Source: Anaerolineales bacterium (lineage in GTDB: Bacteria > Chloroflexota > Anaerolineae > Anaerolineales > DRKV01). Taken from it: a stretch of 45,465 nucleotides of DNA. Shown here one piece after another: positions 319 through 37,249 of this stretch. The DNA is taken from NCBI GenBank assembly GCA_024763355.1, contig JANTFR010000002.1, forward strand, positions 1-45,465, written 5' to 3'. Within the stretch, counting starts at the first letter, position 1. Every line of letters starts with the position of its first letter. The translations under genes and the position numbers were made by a program. The notes below the pieces were generated by a model. It did not search any database. It saw only the letters and a list, made by a program, of their open reading frames with translations, and was not told where the DNA came from.

Positions 319-348
319 TCCACGAATGGACACGAATGGGCACGAATA
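319..348 (+). repeat. CACGAAT-family 10-nt tandem repeat (3 units) abutting a TAG stop
   Basis: TAG-TCCACGAATG-GACACGAATG-GGCACGAATA. Confidence 0.85.
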
Positions 349-1331: not shown

Positions 1332-1333
1332 CA

Positions 1334-1386
1334 ATCCAACCAATGCAACTAATGCAACCAATGCAACCGATGCAACCAATGAACCA
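1334..1386 (+). repeat. CAACCAATG-family 9-nt tandem repeat (about 5 units) upstream of dcd
   Basis: ATCCAACCAATGCAACTAATGCAACCAATGCAACCGATGCAACCAATGAACC. ATGs at 1343, 1352, 1361, 1370 and 1379 are all in one frame. Confidence 0.9.
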
Positions 1387-1953: not shown

Positions 1954-2004
1954 TCCACGAATGGACACGAATAACCACGAATGGGCACGAATGGGCACGA
2001 ATGG
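1954..2004 (+). repeat. CACGAAT-family 10-nt tandem repeat (5 units) abutting the dcd TAG stop
   Basis: TAG-TCCACGAATG-GACACGAATA-ACCACGAATG-GGCACGAATG-GGCACGAATGG. Confidence 0.9.
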
Positions 2005-2020
2005 GGCAGAGTTTTTTCGG

Positions 2021-2717: not shown

Positions 2718-3500
2718 TTACTGCGGAATTTCGGTAGTCGCCAGGATATTATACCCGCCGTCCACGTAGATGACCTGACCGGTCACCTGGGAAGACAACT
2801 CCGAACACAGGAAAACGGCGGTATTGCCCACGTCTTCGATAGTGATGTTCTGCTTCAGAGGGGTTACTTCCGCGAAGTGGCGGTACAAAGATTTGAAACC
2901 GGAGACGCCCGCGGCGGCCAGAGTGCGAATCGGCCCGGCGGAGATAGCATTGACCCGGATGCCCTGCGGCCCGAAATCATACGCCAGATACCGCACGGAG
3001 GCTTCCAGCGCGGCTTTGGCAACGCCCATCACGTTGTAATTGGGGGCTACTTTCTCCGAGCCGTAGTAGGTCAGGGCGACCAGCGCTCCGCCGCGGCGCA
3101 AGATGGGCTGGAACGCGCCCGCCAGCGCCACCAGGGAATAAGCACTGATATCCAGCGCCATGTGGAAACCCTCCCGGCTGGTGTGGTAATACGGGCCTTG
3201 CAGTTCGTCCCGGTTGGCGTGGGCAATCGAGTGAATGAGGATGTCAATCTGCCCGAAGTGTTCCCCCGCTTTTTGGGCGACCGCGGCGATGGCGGCGTCG
3301 TCGGTGACATCGCACGGCTCGATGAAATCCGCCCCGATGCTCTCCCCCAGCGGACGGACGCGCCGCTCCAGCACCGGCCCGGCGTAACTCAATCCCACGC
3401 TGGCTCCGTGGGCGTGCAGGGCCTGGGCGATTCCCCAGGCAATCGAGCGCTTGTTGGCTACGCCAAACACCAGGGCGTTTTTTCCGGTCAGTAAACTCAT
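2718..3500 (-). CDS. fabI: enoyl-[acyl-carrier-protein] reductase (NADH), FabI
   Basis: N-terminal GKNALVFGVANKRSIAWGIA and the catalytic Y...K region YNVMGVAKAALEASVRYLA. 260 aa. Confidence 0.93.
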   Translation of the reverse strand: MSLLTGKNALVFGVANKRSIAWGIAQALHAHGASVGLSYAGPVLERRVRPLGESIGADFIEPCDVTDDAAIAAVAQKAGEHFGQIDILIHSIAHANRDELQGPYYHTSREGFHMALDISAYSLVALAGAFQPILRRGGALVALTYYGSEKVAPNYNVMGVAKAALEASVRYLAYDFGPQGIRVNAISAGPIRTLAAAGVSGFKSLYRHFAEVTPLKQNITIEDVGNTAVFLCSELSSQVTGQVIYVDGGYNILATTEIPQ

Positions 3501-3510
3501 GGGTTCCTCC

Positions 3511-3646
3511 GTTGAGTAGTCAGGTAGTTGGATAGTCGGGTAGTCGGATGGTCGGGTAGTTGAGCGGTCTGACGTCTATCGTCTGTTGTCCGTTGTCCGT
3601 TGTCTGTCGTCCATTGTCCATTGTCCATCGTCCATCGTCCACGGTC
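3511..3646 (-). repeat. composite spacer between mpg and fabI: GGACGAT/GGACAAT/GGACAAC words followed by CTACCCGAC words (mRNA sense)
   Basis: The minus strand reads GGACGATGGACGATGGACAATGGACAATGGACGACAGACAACGGACAACGGACAACAGACG...CAACTACCCGACCATCCGACTACCCGACTATCCAACTACCTGACTACTCAACGGAGG-ATG. Confidence 0.9.
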
Positions 3647-3649
3647 TTA

Positions 3650-4234
3650 TCATCGCCCGTCCACTCGAAACCGCCAGGGAATGCTCTTCCACGGCTCCGG
3701 CACAGTGTATAACCCCACCCGCGGCCCAATGGTGACGCGGCTATCGGGGACGGGTTCGCCCGCTTCGAGGAAAAGCGCCGCATCCGGGGCGCACAAATCC
3801 GCGCCGTTGAACGTTCCGTCAATCCCCAGCGCCTGACACAATTTGGCGGGGCCGTCCGTCCAGGCGCGGCGGGGACGTCCCGCCCGCCGTTGGGCAATGC
3901 GTTCCAGCCCTTCCACCGGCTCCAGCGCGCGCACCAGCACCGCGGCGGGAAAATTTTCCCGTTCCGTCACGCAGTTGAACAGCCAGTGCATCCCGTAGGT
4001 GAAATAGACGTAAGCGTGCCCCGGCGGGCCAAACATGACCCGCGTGCGCGGCGTCAACCCGGCGCGGGCATGGCAGCCCAAATCATTCTCTCCGATGTAG
4101 GCCTCCGTCTCGGTGATGACGCCCGCGACCCGGCTTCCGTCCGGTTCCACCCGCACCAGGCGCATCCCTAACAACTCGCGGGCCACCTGCAAAGTAGGGC
4201 GGTCGAAGAAAGCGCGCGGCAATTTTTCGTTCAT
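3650..4234 (-). CDS. mpg: DNA-3-methyladenine glycosylase (Mpg/AAG family)
   Basis: Trimmed from the 462-aa track ORF to ATG at 4234 (MNEKLPRAFFDRPTLQVARELLG...ITETEAY...GHAYVYFTYGMH). The upstream part of the track ORF is low-complexity and antisense to the LysM gene. Confidence 0.87.
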   Translation of the reverse strand: MNEKLPRAFFDRPTLQVARELLGMRLVRVEPDGSRVAGVITETEAYIGENDLGCHARAGLTPRTRVMFGPPGHAYVYFTYGMHWLFNCVTERENFPAAVLVRALEPVEGLERIAQRRAGRPRRAWTDGPAKLCQALGIDGTFNGADLCAPDAALFLEAGEPVPDSRVTIGPRVGLYTVPEPWKSIPWRFRVDGR

Positions 4235-6231: not shown

Positions 6232-6639
6232 TCAGTCTCCTTCTTCCCCGGTTACTTTTTGCAGGAAGCGCGCCTCGTTGACGATAAAACGCTCGTGCTG
6301 CCCCGCGCCTATCTGCTGACGGGAATCGCGGGCATCCACCGCAAGCGTGACCCGGCGGCCATCCACCGCCAGCACTTCGGCGCGGACGCGCACCGTTTCG
6401 CCCACGGGCGTGGCTGCCAGATGCCGCACGTTGACCAGTGTCCCCACGCTGGTGTAGCCTTCCGGCAGGTGCTGTGCCAGGAGGCGCTGGGCGGTGCGCT
6501 CCATGAACAAAATCATGCAGGGCGTGGAAAGCACCTGCGCCGTCCCGCTGCCTATGTGGGCGGCGGAGTATTCGGGGGTGACCTCGAAGGTCATTTCGTG
6601 GCTTATGCCGGGGGTGATAGATTGGTTCATTGGTTGCAT
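6232..6639 (-). CDS. hotdog-fold thioesterase (fluoroacetyl-CoA thioesterase-like family)
   Basis: Core FEVTPEYSAAHIGSGTAQVLSTPCMILFMERTA...VGTLVNVRHLAATPVGETVRVRAEV. Start placed at the ATG inside the CAACCAATG repeat (6639, alternative 6630). The PTNPTN... extension in the track ORF is translated repeat DNA. Confidence 0.72.
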   Translation of the reverse strand: MQPMNQSITPGISHEMTFEVTPEYSAAHIGSGTAQVLSTPCMILFMERTAQRLLAQHLPEGYTSVGTLVNVRHLAATPVGETVRVRAEVLAVDGRRVTLAVDARDSRQQIGAGQHERFIVNEARFLQKVTGEEGD

Positions 6640-6740
6640 TAGTTCGTTGGTCGGATTGGTCGGATTGGTCACATTGGTCGGATTGGTCGGATTGGTCGGA
6701 TTGGTCACATTGGTCGGATTGGTCGGATTGGTCACATAGG
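6621..6740 (-). repeat. 9-nt tandem array (CCAATCCGA / CCAATGTGA units, about 11 units) ending in the CAACCAATG module at the thioesterase start
   Basis: The plus strand reads GGTCGGATTGGTCGGATTGGTCACATTGGTCGGATT.... Period 9 throughout. Confidence 0.9.
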
Positions 6741-6775
6741 TCGTCTGGGGGGACGGGGTACGGGGTACAGCGTAC

Positions 6776-6824
6776 ACTTTCCCACTTTCATACTTTCATA
6801 CTTTCCCACTTGCCCACTTTCGCC
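6776..6824 (-). repeat. 8-nt tandem words (GAAAGTGG / GAAAGTAT in mRNA sense) directly after the GT2 stop
   Basis: The plus strand reads ACTTTCCCACTTTCATACTTTCATACTTTCCCACTTGCCCACTTTCGCC. Confidence 0.85.
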
Positions 6825-9075: not shown

Positions 9076-9099
9076 GGAGTGCCTCCAAAAAAATTGAGA

Positions 9100-9150
9100 G
9101 TGGGTAGAAAGTACGCAAGTTTGCAAGTGGAAAAGTTTGCAGGCTTGCGG
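9100..9150 (-). repeat. CAAACTT/CACTTGC word cluster in the leader of the PLP-enzyme gene
   Basis: The minus strand reads CCGCAAGCCTGCAAACTTTTCCACTTGCAAACTTGCGTACTTTCTACCCAC. The same words occur at 25717-25754 and 6776-6824. Confidence 0.7.
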
Positions 9151-9286
9151 ACGGGGCGGAAACGGTTCCGAAATTATACCCGCATTGGGGAGCAAATCAC
9201 GAAGGAAGCGGAACCTTCCATGCCGCGGCGTCGTCTACCATCCGCCGTCCACCGTCTCATGTAGTACAATCCCCCCCGAAACCGTC

Positions 9287-11191: not shown

Positions 11192-11372
11192 GACAACAGA
11201 CGACGGACAACAGACGACGGACGACGGTAGACCGTGGACGGTGGGCGGTACGTTGTACGCCGTACACAGTACCTCATACACAGTACCTCGTACACGGTAC
11301 CTCGTACACGGTACGCCGCACCCCGCACTCCGCACGTCGCACCCCGCACCTGACACCTGGCACCTGACACAT
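11192..11372 (+). repeat. composite spacer between VanW and GH114: GGACAACAGACGAC x2, then GTACACRGTACCTC x4, then GCACCCCGCAC / CACCTGACAC words
   Basis: Read directly. The spacer begins immediately after the TAG stop (11189-11191) and ends at ATG 11375. Confidence 0.9.
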
Positions 11373-12595: not shown

Positions 12596-12635
12596 TAAAG
12601 ACTTCCGAGATTTCGAAATCTCGGAAGTCTGTCCC
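12596..12635. repeat. internally deleted derivative of the MITE (core palindrome only)
   Basis: TAAAGACTTCCGAGATTT-CGAAATCTCGGAAGTCTG is a perfect 15-bp palindrome identical to the MITE inner stem. It lies 5 nt after the DUF2442 stop and may act as a terminator or stabiliser hairpin. Confidence 0.7.
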
Positions 12636-13514: not shown

Positions 13515-13573
13515 GGTTTTGCACTTTCCTCACATCCGGCATCTCCTCCGCGGGGGGAGGAAAAATTACGCGC

Positions 13574-13632
13574 CCATTCGTGCTATTCGTGCCCGTTCGT
13601 GCTATTCGTGTCCCTTCGTGGACATTCGTGGA
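13574..13632 (-). repeat. CACGAAT-family tandem repeat (about 6 units) abutting the TAG stop of the DUF456 gene
   Basis: The minus strand reads TAG-TCCACGAATGTCCACGAAGGGACACGAATAGCACGAACGGGCACGAATAGCACGAATGG. Confidence 0.88.
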
Positions 13633-14124
13633 CTAAAAGGCCCACACCGCCCACAAGACAATCATCACCACCCCAATGGCAAAACGCGCCAGGAAAGACA
13701 GTCCCCAGCCCGTAGCCAGCCCCTTGACCGTATCCAGGGCCTGGTCTCGGTTGCGGTGGCGGTAATACTCGAAACCGAACAATGCCAGGGGGCCAAGCAC
13801 CAGACCACCCACCACAGGGACAATCAGCGTCCCGATGAAGAAACCGACCAGCGCGACCGCCAATCCTCCCCAGGAAGCGCCGCCTTTCTTCGCCCCCGCG
13901 CCCATCAGGACGTTATCCACCAGCATCCCGCCGATTGCCAGCAGGGTGATGAGAGCGAACATCCAGCCGCCCAGCGTGCCGAACCCGGCGGCCAGGCCAT
14001 ACGCCAGCGCTGCCAGCCAAATGATGATGATGCCGGGGAAGACGGGAATCACCAGCCCGAACAGGCCGACCAGCATGACGAGGAGGGCAACAACACGGAT
14101 GGAAGTTTCAATCCAGGGGGGCAT
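13633..14124 (-). CDS. DUF456-like integral membrane protein
   Basis: Trimmed to ATG 14124. Four to five hydrophobic segments (LFGLVIPVFPGIIIIWLAALAYGL...). The upstream part of the track ORF is antisense to serS. Confidence 0.65.
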   Translation of the reverse strand: MPPWIETSIRVVALLVMLVGLFGLVIPVFPGIIIIWLAALAYGLAAGFGTLGGWMFALITLLAIGGMLVDNVLMGAGAKKGGASWGGLAVALVGFFIGTLIVPVVGGLVLGPLALFGFEYYRHRNRDQALDTVKGLATGWGLSFLARFAIGVVMIVLWAVWAF

Positions 14125-14161
14125 GGAGGGTGCGGGTTGCGGGTTAGGGGTTGCGGGTTGG
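14125..14161 (-). repeat. 8-nt tandem words CAACCCGC / CCTAACCC in the leader of the DUF456 gene
   Basis: The plus strand reads GGAGGGTGCGGGTTGCGGGTTAGGGGTTGCGGGTTGG. It fills the serS-DUF456 spacer. Confidence 0.85.
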
Positions 14162-15460: not shown

Positions 15461-15511
15461 GGTTGGTAGTTGGTGGTCAGTGGTCTATGGTCAGTGGTCT
15501 GCGGTCTACAG
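15461..15511 (-). repeat. GACCACTGACCATA-type tandem words in the serS leader
   Basis: The minus strand reads CCTGACTGTAGACCGCAGACCACTGACCATAGACCACTGACCACCAACTACCAACC. It fills the lysS-serS spacer. Confidence 0.85.
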
Positions 15512-25716: not shown

Positions 25717-25754
25717 CCCTCCCCACTTGCAAACTTTCCCACCTTCAAACCTCC
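25717..25754 (+). repeat. CACTTGCAAACTTTCCCAC word cluster filling the spacer before the permease gene
   Basis: CCCTCCCCACTTGCAAACTTTCCCACCTTCAAACCTCC-ATG. Confidence 0.7.
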
Positions 25755-27473: not shown

Positions 27474-27986
27474 ATGCCTATGCCCACCATTCTTTACCCT
27501 ACCCGAGGCGGACGTTCCAGTTATCCCAATCAGGAGCGCGTCTTCACCCTGGCCCGCGAGAAAGGGGCTAATTTGCTCCTGCTCTACGTCAGCAACGTGG
27601 AATTTCTCGGCATGGTAGCCCGCGCCAAAGTCGTTGACCTCGAAGAGCAACTCGATAACATGGGCGAATTCCTGCTCGCCATGGCGCAGGAACGCGCCGC
27701 CCAGGCGGGAGTCAAAGCCGAGATGCTGGTGCGCCGTGGCGAATTCCGTCAGGTGCTCAGCGAAGTGGTTGCCGAATACACCGTGGATACCGTCGTCCTG
27801 GGCGCGCCATCCGAGAAGACCGGCCTGACCACCCTGGATTTCATGCGGACTCTGTGCGCCGAACTCTCCGCCGAGACGGGCGTCCCCTTCCTCCTGGTGC
27901 AGGACGGCGAGATTGTGGAGACCTTCACGCCCGGCGAGGATGCCCGGCAAAACGTGGAGGAACCCCGGTCGGACACCGGGGTTTGA
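27474..27986 (+). CDS. universal stress protein-like (adenine nucleotide alpha-hydrolase fold)
   Basis: ILYPTRGG...LLLLYV...VVAEYTVDTVVLGAPS... layout. The start may be the second ATG at 27480, which has better SD spacing. Confidence 0.55.
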   Translation: MPMPTILYPTRGGRSSYPNQERVFTLAREKGANLLLLYVSNVEFLGMVARAKVVDLEEQLDNMGEFLLAMAQERAAQAGVKAEMLVRRGEFRQVLSEVVAEYTVDTVVLGAPSEKTGLTTLDFMRTLCAELSAETGVPFLLVQDGEIVETFTPGEDARQNVEEPRSDTGV

Positions 27987-28053: not shown

Positions 28054-28175
28054 GGCTCTCTTCAGATTTGTGGGGTAAAGACTTCCGAGATTTTGACGAG
28101 AGCCGCTCCGGGTGAACATCACCCCAGGAAAATCTCGGAAGTCTGCCTCTCCTGCCCCACAATTCCGCGTTGACC
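28054..28175 (-). mobile_element. hairpin MITE copy B (inverted relative to copy A) flanked by direct duplication ACATTTTCG (28045-28053 and 28176-28184)
   Basis: The reverse complement aligns end to end with 2019-2141 with about 10 mismatches. It has its own, different flanking 9-bp direct repeat. Confidence 0.75.
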
Positions 28176-28363: not shown

Positions 28364-28431
28364 TTCGTGTACACTCGTGACATTCGTGACATTCGTGGAC
28401 CAATTCGTGTACATTCGTGCAAATTCGTGGA
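28364..28431 (-). repeat. CACGAAT-family tandem repeat (about 7 units), here in the antisense orientation upstream of nadE
   Basis: The plus strand reads TTCGTGTACACTCGTGACATTCGTGACATTCGTGGACCAATTCGTGTACATTCGTGCAAATTCGTGGAC. Confidence 0.88.
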
Positions 28432-28437
28432 CAATGT

Positions 28438-29261: not shown

Positions 29262-29488
29262 GGGACGACGGACGACGGACGGCAGACCACGGACGGTGGA
29301 CGGTGGACGACAGACCACAGGCCGTGCGGGGTGCAGGGGAGGAGACGGACGATGGACGACAGACCGCAGGCCGTGCGGAGTGCGAGGCGCGACGTGCGGG
29401 GGGGGACGACGTGCGGGACGGATAACAGCCCCCAGACACCAACCAACGAACTAATGAACCAATGCAACCAATGCAACCGATGCAACCA
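29262..29488 (+). repeat. composite spacer between nadE and purB: GGACGAC/GGACGGT words, two roughly 33-nt units (GGACGACAGACCRCAGGCCGTGCGGRGTGC), then CCAACGAACTAATG plus the CAACCAATG array
   Basis: Read directly. It starts right after the nadE TGA and runs into the purB start codon. Confidence 0.9.
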
Positions 29489-30883
29489 ATGAACTACTCC
29501 ACCTACCTCTCCCCCTTCACCTGGCGCTACGGGACGGAGGCCATGCGCCGCCTGTGGAGCGAGGAACACAAGCGCCGACTGTGGCGGCAGGTCTGGGTCG
29601 CCTTGGCGCAGGCGCAATCCGAATTCGGACTGGTATCCCCCGCACAGGTGGGTGACCTGCGGGCGCACGCCGAGGCGGTGGACGTAGGGCGCGCCCTGCA
29701 AATCGAATCCGAAATCCATCACGACCTGATGGCCGAAATCCGCGCCTTCGCTGAGCAATGTCCCGTGGGGGGCGGCATTATCCACCTGGGGGCTACCTCC
29801 ATGGACATCGAGGACAACGCCGAGGCTCTCCGCCTGCGCGCCGCCCTCGACCTGGTGCTGAAAGACCTGGGCGACCTCCTGGAAATCCTCACCGACCGCA
29901 TCGAAGCGCACGCCGAGACGCCCGTGATGGCCTTCACCCACCTCCAGCCCGCCGAACCCACCACCCTGGGCTACCGCTTGGCGCTCTACGCCCAGGACCT
30001 CCTCACCGACTACACCGACCTGCGCCGCCTGCGCACCGAAATCCGCGGCAAGGGCTTCAAAGGCGCGGTAGGCACATCCGCCTCCTACGCCGAACTGCTG
30101 GGCGCGGAGAACCTGCCCCGCTTCGAGGCTCGCCTGAGCGAACTTCTCGATCTGCCCTTTTATCCCGTCGCCTCCCAAACTTACCCTCGCAAACAGGAGT
30201 ACCGCCTGCTCAGTGCCCTGGCCGGGCTGGGCGGGTCGCTCTACAAATTCGCCTTCGACCTGCGTATTCTCCAATCTCCGCCCCTCGGCGAATGGAGCGA
30301 ACCCTTCGCGGCCAAACAGGTCGGCTCCTCGGCCATGCCCTTCAAGCGCAACCCCATCCAGGCCGAAAAACTGGATTCCCTGGGGCGCGCCCTGGCGCAG
30401 ATGCCCCGTCTGGCCTGGGACAACGCCGCCCATTCCCTTCTGGAGCGCACGCTGGACGACAGCGCCAACCGCCGCACCCTCCTGCCGGAGGCCTTCCTGA
30501 CCGCCTCGGAGATGCTTCGCGTCGCCCGCCGCCTGTTTGCGGAACTCCGCGTCGACGAAAGCGCCGTCCGCCGCACGCTGGAGACCTACGCCCCCTTCGC
30601 CGCCACCGAGCGCCTCCTGATGACCCTCGTCAAGCGCGGCGCAGACCGGCAGGAGATGCACGAACGCCTGCGGCTCCACGCCCTGGAGGCCTGGGAACAC
30701 CTCCGGGAGGGTCGCGGCAACCCCCTGATAGCGCTGGTGGAAGCCGACCCCGTTTTTCGGGCGCTCCTGACCCCCGAAGAAATCCGCTCCCTGATGGATG
30801 CCCGCGCCTACCTGGGCGATGCCCCCCGACGGGCGCAGGAAATGGGAGCAGCCATCAAAGCACGGCTGGGAGACATCCAATGA
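29489..30883 (+). CDS. purB: adenylosuccinate lyase
   Basis: MNYSTYLSPFTWRYGT..., GATSMDIEDN and signature SSAMPFKRNPI. Three further in-frame ATGs lie upstream in the repeat (29462, 29471, 29480). Confidence 0.92.
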   Translation: MNYSTYLSPFTWRYGTEAMRRLWSEEHKRRLWRQVWVALAQAQSEFGLVSPAQVGDLRAHAEAVDVGRALQIESEIHHDLMAEIRAFAEQCPVGGGIIHLGATSMDIEDNAEALRLRAALDLVLKDLGDLLEILTDRIEAHAETPVMAFTHLQPAEPTTLGYRLALYAQDLLTDYTDLRRLRTEIRGKGFKGAVGTSASYAELLGAENLPRFEARLSELLDLPFYPVASQTYPRKQEYRLLSALAGLGGSLYKFAFDLRILQSPPLGEWSEPFAAKQVGSSAMPFKRNPIQAEKLDSLGRALAQMPRLAWDNAAHSLLERTLDDSANRRTLLPEAFLTASEMLRVARRLFAELRVDESAVRRTLETYAPFAATERLLMTLVKRGADRQEMHERLRLHALEAWEHLREGRGNPLIALVEADPVFRALLTPEEIRSLMDARAYLGDAPRRAQEMGAAIKARLGDIQ

Positions 30884-30893
30884 AAACGCTTTT

Positions 30894-30952
30894 GGAGTGC
30901 GACATAAAGATGTCGCTTTAGAAAGCGGCGACGTGTCGCCGCACTTCAAAGC
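30894..30952 (+). repeat. REP-like hairpin doublet, left of the RAYT gene
   Basis: GGAGTGCGACATAAAGATGTCGCTTTAGAAAGCGGCGACGTGTCGCCGCACTTCAAAGC contains two hairpins (GCGACAT/ATGTCGC and GCGGCGAC/GTCGCCGC). Confidence 0.8.
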
Positions 30953-30963
30953 AAGGAGGAAAT

Positions 30964-31491
30964 ATGGACTGGCCTCACGCTCCCAAACACTGGCTGTTCC
31001 AGCCGGGAATCTATATCGTCACTGCCGCGACCTATCATAAACATCCGCACCTTCGTTCTCCTGAACGCAAGGATTTCTTTCTGGAACGTCTGTTTGCCAT
31101 CGCAAAAGAATTCGGCTGGGCGTTACAGGCCTGGGCAATCCTGAACAACCATTACCACTTTGTCGCTGCTTCGCCGGAAGACCCTGCCACCCTGCGCCGT
31201 TTTATCGCCAAACTGCACATGACTACCGCCAAAGCCTTCAACCAATTGGACGACACGCCTGGGCGGAAAGTATGGTATCAGTATTGGGATACTTTGCTGA
31301 CCTACCAGCGCTCCTACCTCGCGCGGCTGAACTACGTCAACCAGAACCCGGTCAAACATGGGCTGGCAAAAAACGCAGAAGCGTATCGCTGGTGTTCGGC
31401 ACGCTGGTTCGCTCAAAACGCGCCGCCGGCCTTCGTAACGAGCGTGCAACGCTTCAAGATAGACCGCGTCAACGTCTACGACGATTTTTAG
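30964..31491 (+). CDS. REP-associated tyrosine transposase (RAYT; IS200/IS605-like Y1 HUH transposase)
   Basis: HUH motif NNHYHFVA and catalytic Tyr region YVNQNPVKHGL. SD aaggagg 6 nt upstream. Flanked by REP-like hairpin doublets. Confidence 0.85.
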   Translation: MDWPHAPKHWLFQPGIYIVTAATYHKHPHLRSPERKDFFLERLFAIAKEFGWALQAWAILNNHYHFVAASPEDPATLRRFIAKLHMTTAKAFNQLDDTPGRKVWYQYWDTLLTYQRSYLARLNYVNQNPVKHGLAKNAEAYRWCSARWFAQNAPPAFVTSVQRFKIDRVNVYDDF

Positions 31492-31496
31492 GCTAT

Positions 31497-31569
31497 GGAG
31501 TGCGACCTATGGAGTGCGGCATCGAGATGCCGCTTTCCATAGCGGAGACAAGTCTCCGCACACCAAATC
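31497..31569 (+). repeat. REP-like hairpin doublet, right of the RAYT gene (plus a 14-nt partial duplication)
   Basis: GGAGTGCGGCATCGAGATGCCGCTTTCCATAGCGGAGACAAGTCTCCGCACACCAAATC aligns position for position with 30894-30952. Both stems carry compensatory changes. Confidence 0.8.
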
Positions 31570-31640
31570 TCCACCCGCCGCGGGCAAGATTTCGCATCTC
31601 TCCACGACGACTCTCTCTTCCGGGTGCTGGTTGCAACTTA

Positions 31641-31680
31641 AAAAGACCTCCGAGGTCTTGGAGACCTCGGAGGTCTTCAG
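31641..31680. repeat. tandem pair of palindromes AGACCTCCGAGGTCT / AGACCTCGGAGGTCT
   Basis: Two adjacent 15-nt palindromes related in sequence to the MITE core (AGACTTCCGAG). They sit just downstream of the wHTH regulator stop on the minus strand. Confidence 0.6.
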
Positions 31681-31683
31681 ATT

Positions 31684-35697: not shown

Positions 35698-35733
35698 TCC
35701 CTGCCGTCCACCGTCCCACCCAAAAGGACTTCC

Positions 35734-37146: not shown

Positions 37147-37160
37147 GGCACCTGCTTTGC

Positions 37161-37220
37161 CCACACAGAGACACGGGAACCGTATTGTAAAAACTCTGTG
37201 TGCTCCGTGTCTTTGTGTGG
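37161..37220 (+). other. long intercistronic hairpin (16-bp stem, 1 mismatch) between the FAD oxidoreductase and ABC SBP genes
   Basis: CCACACAGAGACACGG...28-nt loop...CCGTGTCTTTGTGTGG, with an alternative inner pairing CACAGAG/CTCTGTG. No U-tract. Confidence 0.5.
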
Positions 37221-37249
37221 AAAGACTGACAAACCCCAAAGGAGAACCG

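Follow-up and report, generated by a model that had tools for sequence, protein, structure and literature searches.

We analyzed a stretch of 45,465 nucleotides (45.5 kb, 62% G+C) from an uncultured Anaerolineales bacterium of the phylum Chloroflexota (GenBank assembly GCA_024763355.1, contig JANTFR010000002.1, positions 1 to 45,465 of the forward strand; hereafter the window), in which many spacers between co-directional genes are filled with arrays of short tandem words. The nearest named homologues of its SerS protein belong to Chloroflexota/Anaerolineales metagenome-assembled genomes. The gene map, built from codon statistics and mostly checked against Pfam, comprises 47 protein genes and one tRNA gene, and the gene names given in an earlier reading of the letters by a model (the original prediction) hold on this map. 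The spacer that best exemplifies the arrays separates mpg, which encodes methylpurine-DNA glycosylase (3650-4234, - strand), from fabI (2718-3500, - strand), both assigned with Pfam. Read in mRNA sense, the mpg stop codon is followed by 11 heptamers of the GGACGAY/AGACRAC type, then by CTACCCGAC-like words, a GGAGG Shine-Dalgarno (SD) sequence, and the fabI ATG at 3500, an arrangement that the original prediction had described correctly. The stop-proximal module (3574..3641, - strand) consists of GGACGAT, GGACAAT, GGACGAC, and AGACAAC heptamers, detected by Tandem Repeats Finder (TRF) with periods of 7, 14, and 21, and has more G than C in the sense strand (skew, (G-C)/(G+C), of +0.20). The start-proximal C-rich module (3517..3569, - strand; CTACCCGAC, CCATCCGAC, and CTATCCAAC words, periods 8 and 16) has a skew of -0.59 and lies before the SD sequence.

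To delimit the arrays we used a TRF score of at least 40 for coverage and of at least 30 for the fill of named spacers. Arrays covered 914 of the 4189 intergenic nucleotides of the window (21.8%) but only 87 of its 40640 coding nucleotides (0.21%), an approximately 100-fold enrichment, and the sole array in a coding region is a period-15/21 repeat in the linker of a LysM protein. There are 20 merged arrays (approximately 0.44 per kb) with units of 7 to 10 nt, the commonest periods being 7 and 8. They fill approximately 81% of the mpg-fabI spacer, 98% of the GT2-thioesterase spacer, 96% of the VanW-GH114 spacer, and 46% of the nadE-purB spacer. TRF detected arrays at every site at which this architecture had been proposed to recur. 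The accompanying claim that spacers are built almost entirely from repeats applies to approximately 12 of the 32 spacers of at least 25 nt, namely co-directional ones, and not to the rest; the spacers of greA, lysS, FKBP, SWIM, and tRNA-Ser, which carry promoter- or terminator-like sites, are ordinary and conserved among relatives. Short-read assembly can, as a matter of principle, shorten or lengthen tandem repeats, and nothing else speaks for the arrays being an artefact of metagenome assembly. The 149-nt mpg-fabI spacer is identical in L001 and L002, 2 assemblies of other sequencing runs, homologous arrays occur in 6 further assemblies (NCBI, ENA), and every array is shorter than approximately 120 nt, below typical read lengths. 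Because the arrays are reproduced in independent assemblies, we consider an artefact ruled out for practical purposes.

For comparison, we assembled a graded series of syntenic contigs found via SerS and NadE homologues. The close relatives are L003-L006 (SerS 95% identical), L212 (NadE 98%), and L213 (NadE 93%), and the next lineages out are L007/L214, L088, L089, and L090 (SerS 87% to 92% or NadE 89% to 93% identical). The whole sample amounts to 45 kb plus approximately 90 kb of relatives, partly orthologous. GCA_054008495.1, GCA_054010875.1, and GCA_054037075.1 are repeat-rich genomes of this group, and GCA_054028915.1 is a repeat-poor sister. Automatic gene calls were made with a model trained on Pfam-checked genes. 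Background loci from other Chloroflexota came from a wider contig scan (SerS identity to the window of at most 74%), and their gene calls are automatic and somewhat noisy.

In the long spacers the modules follow a fixed order in mRNA sense: the stop codon, G/purine-rich words (GGACGAY, AGACRAC, GAAAGTGGG), in some spacers a middle module (GTACACNGTACCTC), C/A-rich and G-poor words (CTACCCGAC, GACCAATCC, CGCACCC, AACCCGC, CAACCAATG, CACTTGCAAACTT), and the start codon. To test this polarity, we pooled spacers of at least 100 nt from the window and 5 related loci, using the published gene calls for the relatives. G exceeded C in 17 of 21 stop-proximal arrays, and G was equal to or lower than C in 19 of 20 start-proximal arrays (Fisher p = 7e-7 pooled, 0.015 for the window only, and 6e-4 for the relatives only); these counts come partly from orthologous arrays and are hence not fully independent. 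The polarity is the same whichever strand a gene lies on, and each arm of the divergent PLP|VanW spacer shows it too, confirming that the arrays are oriented with transcription. Because of this sense-specific pattern, polarity tracks transcription and not replication, and a replication-strand origin of the skew was ruled out. The leaders had been predicted to be G-poor, and 11 of 13 array-bearing leaders indeed have skews between -0.38 and -0.87. Spacers of the same clade that lack repeats also have more C than G before start codons (mean skew -0.23, n = 28; -0.17 in L007), and the mean elsewhere in Chloroflexota is -0.02 (517 leaders). C-rich leaders are thus a trait of the clade, present even without repeats. 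The excess of G over C after stop codons, on the other hand, is limited to repeat-bearing spacers (mean +0.22 vs -0.07 in non-repeat spacers).

The remaining long spacers show how this order is realized. Downstream of the GT2 gene, the stop-proximal module (6775..6821, - strand; GAAAGTGGG/GCAAGTGGG) has a skew of +0.90 and reads, on the opposite strand, as the CACTTGC/CACTTTCC leader family. It is followed by the start-proximal module of the thioesterase gene (6631..6743, - strand), with (GACCAATCC)n and GACCAATGT variants (TRF period 9/27, 9.7 copies, skew -0.45), which terminates in AACGAACTAATGCAACCA and the ATG. On the + strand, the VanW stop-proximal module (11192..11249) is made of GGACAAC, AGACGAC, and GGACGGT heptamers, and the middle and start-proximal modules of GH114 (11255..11370) are made of (GTACACNGTACCTC)n, (CGCACCC)n, and (CACCTGA)n with TRF periods of 14 and 7 and a skew of -0.40. 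Also on the + strand, the nadE stop-proximal heptamers (29263..29318; GGACGAC/GGACGGT) give way to a degenerate G-rich stretch up to 29439 and then to the purB start-proximal module (29440..29488), an (CAACCAATG)n array whose last unit provides the purB ATG at 29489. This position is the ancestral purB start by comparison with L214; in-frame upstream ATGs at 29462, 29471, and 29480 would add (MQP)3. For purB as for the thioesterase gene, the final ATG of an CAACCAATG array serves as start codon (29462-29491 and 6630-6641). The M23-dcd spacer is filled by an (CAATGCAAC)n array (1332..1386, + strand; TRF period 9, 6.2 copies), followed by a GGAG SD sequence and the dcd ATG at 1399, and some 12-mers of this leader array recur in the leaders of purB and the thioesterase gene. 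Its ATGs at 1343, 1352, 1361, 1370, and 1379 are in frame with the TGA at 1406-1408, so that a possible upstream open reading frame (ORF) of at most 21 codons would end just inside dcd.

Shorter arrays occupy further leaders and spacers. The DUF456 leader is an (AACCCGC)n array (14131..14160, - strand) without an SD sequence, and its antisense strand, the complement of the array, carries a canonical G-quadruplex (G4) motif at 14116-14143 (+ strand). The lysS-serS spacer contains AGACCAC/TGACCAC heptamers (15473..15511, - strand), and the serS leader has no SD sequence. Words of the CACTTGCAAACTTTCC type separate the C-N hydrolase gene from the CitMHS permease gene (25717..25754, + strand), and the VTT-PyrRedox spacer is C-rich (35698..35733, + strand) and contains CCGTCCACCGTCC, which is the GGACGGT family in reverse complement. 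In the divergent spacer, the 5' leader of the PLP-enzyme gene (9097..9148, - strand; CACTTGCAAACTT and CTTTTCCAC words) lies downstream of a conserved TATAAT (9173-9178, - strand), and the heptamers upstream of VanW (9228..9257, + strand; CGTCGTC, TACCATC, CGCCGTC, and CACCGTC) adjoin a conserved TACAAT. Because they adjoin this -10 box, and seem to lie upstream of it, the VanW-proximal heptamers are probably promoter-proximal and not part of the mRNA.

The recurrence of words at unlinked sites, also claimed before, is far beyond chance: 105 distinct 12-mers are shared between spacers of the window, while shuffled spacers shared 0.93 on average and never more than 5. A feature absent from the original prediction is that one word family can be used in either orientation, set by its position. 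The GGACGGT/GGACGAC words found after stop codons appear as CCGTCCACCGTC before VanW and PyrRedox; GAAAGTGGG after the GT2 stop appears as CACTTTCC/CACTTGCAAACTT before CitMHS and PLP, and before GH114 in L003 and L006; and GGTCAGC after stop codons in L003-L006 appears as CTGACCAC before serS in the window. As read from the list of shared 12-mer pairs, words in the same positional class have the same sense orientation, and words in opposite classes are inverted. In addition, purB and the thioesterase gene have a leader cassette in common, AACGAACTAATG(C/A)AACCA followed by ATG. Word families were also common to the window and to non-orthologous sites in L090 and L089. This dispersal raises the possibility that every array, and not just those of CACGAAT, is a piece or relic of a mobile element copied to new sites, with the orientation reflecting an insertion preference. 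Such an origin would fit the 12- to 20-nt words common to unlinked spacers and to non-orthologous sites, the arrays that adjoin stop and start codons exactly, and the CACGAAT arrays described below, which demonstrably bound inserted elements. However, the heptamer modules do not form inverted pairs within a spacer and are not accompanied by excess hairpins, the differences between strains are whole-unit insertions or deletions (indels) inside arrays, which is typical of slippage, and no transposase is associated with the arrays, the only transposase-like gene in the window having hairpins of its own. We regard a mobile origin of all arrays as doubtful.

The close relatives have the same architecture with different words and lengths. 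The VanW-GH114 spacer retains a length of 183 to 191 nt although all its words are replaced. The lysS-serS spacer measures 65 nt in the window, 212 to 235 nt in L003-L006, and 19 to 34 nt, with an SD sequence, in L007, L088, L089, and L090. The C-N hydrolase-permease spacer has 38 nt in the window, 60 nt in L212, and 118 nt in L213, and the CACTTGCAAACTTTCC words are absent from L214. L003 and L005, which have identical SerS proteins and approximately 98% identical coding DNA, allowed us to compare substitutions and indels: their coding DNA shows 0.8 to 4.1 substitutions per 100 nt and zero indels, whereas 3 of 4 array junctions show 8 to 37 indel columns per 100 nt, with 8 to 9 substitutions per 100 nt in two of them, and the fourth, the DUF456-HEAT spacer with its CACGAAT array, is identical in the two strains. 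These indels are largely whole repeat units. Array lengths also differ among the window, L212, and L213, and between strains that are 95% to 98% related the words and their copy number change, and a module can even be present in one and missing in another.

Beyond the close relatives the arrays nearly vanish. TRF coverage is 2.2% to 3.8% in the repeat-rich clade, 0.14% to 0.24% in L007, L088, and L089, and 1.4% in L090, there in a single spacer; the median of 80 other Chloroflexota loci is approximately 0.4%. The junctions of the same genes measure -8 to 39 nt with almost no arrays in the sister lineages and 50 to 450 nt in the repeat-rich lineage. Thus, the window has 229 nt between nadE and purB where L214 has 1 nt, the Usp and nadE genes have 8 nt in common in L213 and L214, and the lysS-serS-DUF456 junctions of L007/L214 and L088-L090 are mostly 19 to 39 nt (one has 125 nt), with recognizable SD sequences before serS. 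The single repeat-filled spacer of L090 has the same polarity and carries the CTACCCGAC family at a site non-orthologous to that of the window, which argues that word families outlive single arrays. Since the sisters are nearly free of arrays and strains differ by whole-unit indels, the arrays are recent, dispensable expansions inside formerly tight, presumably co-transcribed junctions. In L006 the GT2 gene, which in the window and L003 lies between the PLP-enzyme and thioesterase genes, is missing, and a 9-nt array-free junction takes its place (L006:11507-11515). The more distant L091 (SerS 77% identical) has a 571-nt structured-looking leader before serS, possibly of the T-box type (L091:9430-10000).

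We then examined what the arrays would mean for the RNA. The spacers showed no excess of RNA structure (minimum free energy [MFE] z-scores of -0.3 to +4.1 relative to dinucleotide shuffles, 10 spacers). Because they are no more structured than shuffles, the G-rich and C-rich halves do not pair with each other, and a hairpin formed by 5' and 3' modules was ruled out. At the Rfam gathering threshold only tRNA-Ser was found in the window and no known RNA family at the arrays, and the repeat-filled co-directional spacers contained no promoter- or terminator-like sites beyond chance; a single 9/12 promoter-like match (28386-28415) falls in an ATTCGTG array. Start regions preceded by arrays are unstructured, as had been proposed: the median MFE of positions -40 to +20 is -5.3 kcal/mol, compared with -10.4 kcal/mol for other genes (p = 4e-4). 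They also mostly lack an SD sequence, with a median SD duplex energy of -1.5 kcal/mol compared with -5.9 kcal/mol for the others (p = 0.014), and serS of the window is devoid of the SD sequence that its orthologues retain. Translation of essential genes, serS and purB among them, must therefore initiate on such leaders.

These properties could be taken to mean that the modules are adaptive cis-regulatory RNA elements of a post-transcriptional regulon, in which C/A-rich arrays would serve as translation enhancers or ribosome standby sites (for instance for S1 or a cold-shock-type protein) and the G-rich, GGA-containing arrays after stop codons as binding or stabilizing elements. The strict rule of position and orientation, the SD-less essential genes behind arrays, the AACGAACTAATG(C/A)AACCA cassette before both purB and the thioesterase gene, and the similar length of the VanW-GH114 spacer despite full word replacement are in line with such a regulon, and a similar proposal has been made for TAACTGA repeats (PMC4679880). 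Yet sister genomes have the same operons without arrays, words, copy number, and module presence vary between closely related strains, the genes concerned have unrelated functions (fabI, serS, purB, GH114 hydrolase, permease), and no candidate binding protein was identified. A regulon is therefore a possible but rather unlikely reading. The original suggestion of a role in translation initiation or mRNA stability retains the G-poor, unstructured, mostly SD-less leaders in its favor, but a conserved regulatory feature does not agree with the nearly array-free sisters.

An action at the level of DNA or transcription was also considered, in which G-quadruplexes or i-motifs, R-loops, RNA polymerase pausing, or Rho loading would tune read-through between cistrons. 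L003-L006 have a canonical G4 motif, GGGATTGGGGATAAGGGATTTGGG, in the sense strand directly after the serS stop codon, and the G4-forming heptamers of Xanthomonas and Nostoc share the position rule. In the stop-proximal modules of the window, however, no canonical G4 motif was found, GG runs being dominant, and the rule follows the sense strand of each gene and not the chromosome strand. Start-proximal tracts of more than 100 nt with approximately 40% to 54% C and 0% to 21% G, G-poor and unstructured, resemble Rho utilization (rut) sites in composition. Such rut-like tracts before essential genes would nevertheless be costly, and we consider this type of action very unlikely. Avoidance of rut sites as the cause of the G-rich modules after stop codons is likewise unsupported, since C-rich, G-poor tracts of more than 100 nt exist. 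The window contains no rho gene.

The explanation that we hold with moderate confidence is that the arrays are long simple-sequence repeats of the slippage type, located in the operon junctions of one lineage, and that their orientation is filtered by selection on polycistronic mRNA. Tandem units of 7 to 10 nt would be gained and lost by replication slippage or unequal recombination. The arrays have expanded within formerly tight, presumably co-transcribed junctions of one Anaerolineales lineage, where they are dispensable and turn over quickly. Because the arrays would sit inside polycistronic mRNAs, selection on these mRNAs may decide which strand of a word family is placed where. Close to start codons, the sole orientation to survive would be the G-poor, C/A-rich one, keeping the initiation region single-stranded and permitting SD-less initiation, and the G-rich orientation would be restricted to the stop-proximal part of long spacers. 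The data above show the enrichment, the polarity, the use of word families in both orientations, the recent origin and rapid turnover, the absence of added RNA structure, the weak SD pairing, and the unstructured start regions; from them we infer co-transcription of the junctions, slippage as the generator of the arrays, and selection on mRNA as the filter.

Several observations weigh against this explanation. Keeping the start region unstructured does not account for the G>C bias after stop codons, for which a further cause is required. The filter has at least one exception, the L006 fabI leader, where G-rich GGACGGT heptamers run right up to the SD sequence. The VanW-proximal array obeys the polarity although it is apparently outside the mRNA. 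The same long words turn up in unlinked spacers and, across species, in non-orthologous places, a dispersal that local slippage does not provide. Finally, the loci sampled are partly orthologous, so that counts are not fully independent. The post-stop preference and the spread of words, which selection-filtered slippage leaves unexplained, therefore give room for the rival readings discussed above (adaptive RNA modules, a mobile origin of all arrays, and effects on DNA or transcription). A further reading is a lineage-specific functional intercistronic system, in which arrays that are G-rich after stops and C-rich before starts would have replaced translational coupling and SD-dependent initiation at many junctions, would be read by a dedicated RNA-binding factor or the ribosome, and would have spread by a copy mechanism that inserted shared word families in a position-dependent orientation; we hold this to be improbable.

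The repeat class and the orientation rule are already known, and the original statement that the arrays are not a described feature stands only for their dense, multi-family form. Long simple-sequence repeats (LSSRs) have units of 5 to 11 nt, heptamers being the commonest (Mrazek, Guo and Shah 2007, as summarized in PMC4679880). As outlined in that summary, they are intergenic and tandem, occur sporadically and in a lineage-specific manner in free-living, higher-GC bacteria, and are proposed to arise by slippage. The 20 merged arrays of the window consist of head-to-tail units within this range, and copy number and sequence vary among close relatives (L003 vs L005; the window, L212, and L213). 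The window is far denser in arrays than the LSSRs outlined there (approximately 0.44 arrays per kb, 22% of intergenic DNA), and it joins many word families as ordered modules in one spacer. Rehm et al. 2015 (PMC4692102) described GGGAATC and GGGGA(C/T)T heptamers of Xanthomonas and Nostoc, mostly between aligned ORFs, with the G-rich strand in sense within 50 bp after stop codons and in antisense within 50 bp before ORFs. These repeats are transcribed in Xanthomonas, variable among relatives, and of unknown function (PMC4692102). Their rule of position and orientation is the one found in the window and its relatives, a G4 array of the GGGATT type follows serS in L003-L006, and the G4 motif antisense to the DUF456 leader agrees with their placement on the antisense strand before an ORF. 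In Xanthomonas and Nostoc, however, there is a single, G4-forming word family with a preference for 4 units, whereas the window has approximately 10 families, mostly not G4-capable, with G-rich and C-rich modules of different families in one spacer.

Translation has been considered for other heptamers. TAACTGA repeats upstream of start codons in marine Beggiatoaceae were proposed to have a translational role (MacGregor 2015, PMC4679880). Like the start-proximal arrays of the window, these are forward heptamers located directly before the start codons of unrelated genes, in place of a ribosome-binding site, but they consist of one word in 2 to 6 copies, have no stop-proximal partner module, and occur in a different phylum. 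Chloroflexus aurantiacus, from the same phylum as the window, is presented by Subirana and Messeguer 2019 (PMC6749651) as the most satellite-rich bacterium, at 14 satellites per Mb in their survey. Its single heptamer-derived family, (GATAGRA)n, is scattered through the genome, and the authors proposed dispersal by an unknown mechanism. The window contains one isolated TAACTGA and no tandem copy, no tandem GGGAATC or GGGGATT, and no tandem GATAGRA words. Our arrays were also compared with the short tandemly repeated repetitive (STRR) sequences of cyanobacteria. These are the heptamers STRR1 (CCCCAGT), STRR2 (TTGGTCA), and STRR3 (CAACAGT). The resemblance noted in the original prediction lies in the intergenic tandem heptamers with several families per genome; the phylum is another one, and the window contains no tandem STRR1-3 words, so that membership in any of the STRR1-3, TAACTGA, GGGAATC/GGGGATT, and GATAGRA families was rejected. 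We know of no report of a modular stop-to-start order for STRR sequences. CA multimers reportedly act as translational enhancers in enterobacteria, and GcvB is said to have C/A-rich targets. Such elements are analogous in function only: they are G-poor, unstructured, and beside the start codon, but each is a short stand-alone sequence that is not repeated in tandem. The record of heptamer-class repeats in bacteria goes back to approximately 1990, and to our knowledge their function is still unknown. A literature search for arrays in Anaerolineae or for the words of the window returned nothing relevant.

New here are the phylum, the density of 22% of intergenic DNA, the joining of many families as ordered modules with the same family oriented by position, and the clear contrast with sister lineages, including the replacement of overlapping-gene junctions and SD sites. 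The lineage offers an unusually clean natural experiment, with the same operons having tight (-8 to 39 nt) or array-filled (50 to 450 nt) junctions, families present in both orientations by position, and essential genes without an SD sequence behind arrays. It opens questions on the constraint on repeat orientation, on SD-less initiation on C-rich leaders, and on the spread of short words. Such spacers, with in-frame ATG arrays and long spurious ORFs, mislead gene callers, and the arrays are hypervariable markers for strain typing in Anaerolineae.

CACGAAT had been listed among the recurring words. It does recur, but it belongs to a separate inverted-repeat element and not to the heptamer class. 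In the dcd|bactofilin spacer, a CACGAATGGR decamer array (1956..2005, + strand) starts 2 nt past the dcd TAG stop and forms the left end of an insert resembling a miniature inverted-repeat transposable element (MITE), with a degenerate inverted array at approximately 2183-2210. In the Usp|nadE spacer, a CACGAAT array on the - strand (28364..28433; ATTCGTG on the + strand) ends 4 nt before the nadE ATG and forms the right end of a 451-nt insert, which is absent from L213 and L214, where Usp overlaps nadE. Both inserts have a CACGAAT array at one end, a degenerate other end, and a palindromic GACTTCCGAGATTT element inside. The nadE leader, reported as the exception to G-poor leaders, is explained by this insert, whose inverted end lies there. 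Past ...IVETF, the C-terminus of Usp (27930-27986) diverges from that of L213/L214, its last approximately 10 codons being replaced by the insert. A solo block of 3 decamers lies 2 nt past a TAG stop (321..347, + strand), and an array of 6 units lies 2 nt past the DUF456 TAG stop (13572..13630, - strand), kept in L003-L006 and missing in L007. All 3 arrays located after genes begin 2 nt past a TAG (316-318, 1951-1953, 13633-13635) with the identical 13-mer TAGTCCACGAATG, and TAG accounts for 9 of the 47 stop codons in the window; an array may have brought the stop with it on insertion or led to its fixation.

A metagenome scan for CACGAATGGNCACGAAT yielded at least 120 stretches (L092-L211) with 30% to 67% G+C. 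Among the matches listed, exactly 3 decamers were present in 87 of 95 arrays, with the block consensus (TTT)AAC-CACGAAT-GGA-CACGAAT-RAA-CACGAAT (3 x 10 nt). Inverted pairs of the 30-nt block, roughly 20 to 450 nt apart, occurred in at least 11 metagenome contigs. Within the matches listed, the interior of a pair was sometimes a GxxExxY gene (TIGR04256, E = 2e-41 and 4e-40), and 11 of 15 GxxExxY ORFs lay at most 120 nt from a block. Also among these matches, 33 arrays were at most 30 nt after the stop of a sense ORF, 12 of them at exactly 1 nt, and only 10 had the stop of an antisense ORF on the other side. Inverted terminal blocks, together with filled and empty sites among relatives, are what is expected of a MITE-like element or cassette; neither target-site duplications nor a transposase could be identified for it, and our literature search found no paper describing the block. 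The CACGAAT arrays thus originate as the inverted termini of an element of their own, which is inserted and widespread, and lie outside the explanation given above for the heptamer arrays.

Other inserts accompany these elements. The palindromic element with the core GACTTCCGAGATTT...AAATCTCGGAAGTC occurs in 4 spacers (approximately 2031-2132, 12597-12632, 28067-28170, and 31640-31683), is MITE-like or resembles repetitive extragenic palindromic sequences, and contributes many of the 12-mers shared between spacers; its longer copies are flanked by TTGTGGGG...CCCCACAA. A second palindromic family (CACAGAGACACGG ... CCGTGTGCTCTGTG) is found at 37160-37230 of the window, L003:6340-6560, and L212:3800-3900, and explains an insertion of approximately 225 nt that L003 and L006 have, compared with the window, between greA and lysS. 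The sole transposase-like gene of the window is an IS200-like Y1 gene (30964-31491; a weak Pfam match, below the curated cutoff), and its region (30884-31683) has hairpin-forming GGAGTGCGAC...GTCGC repeats on both flanks.

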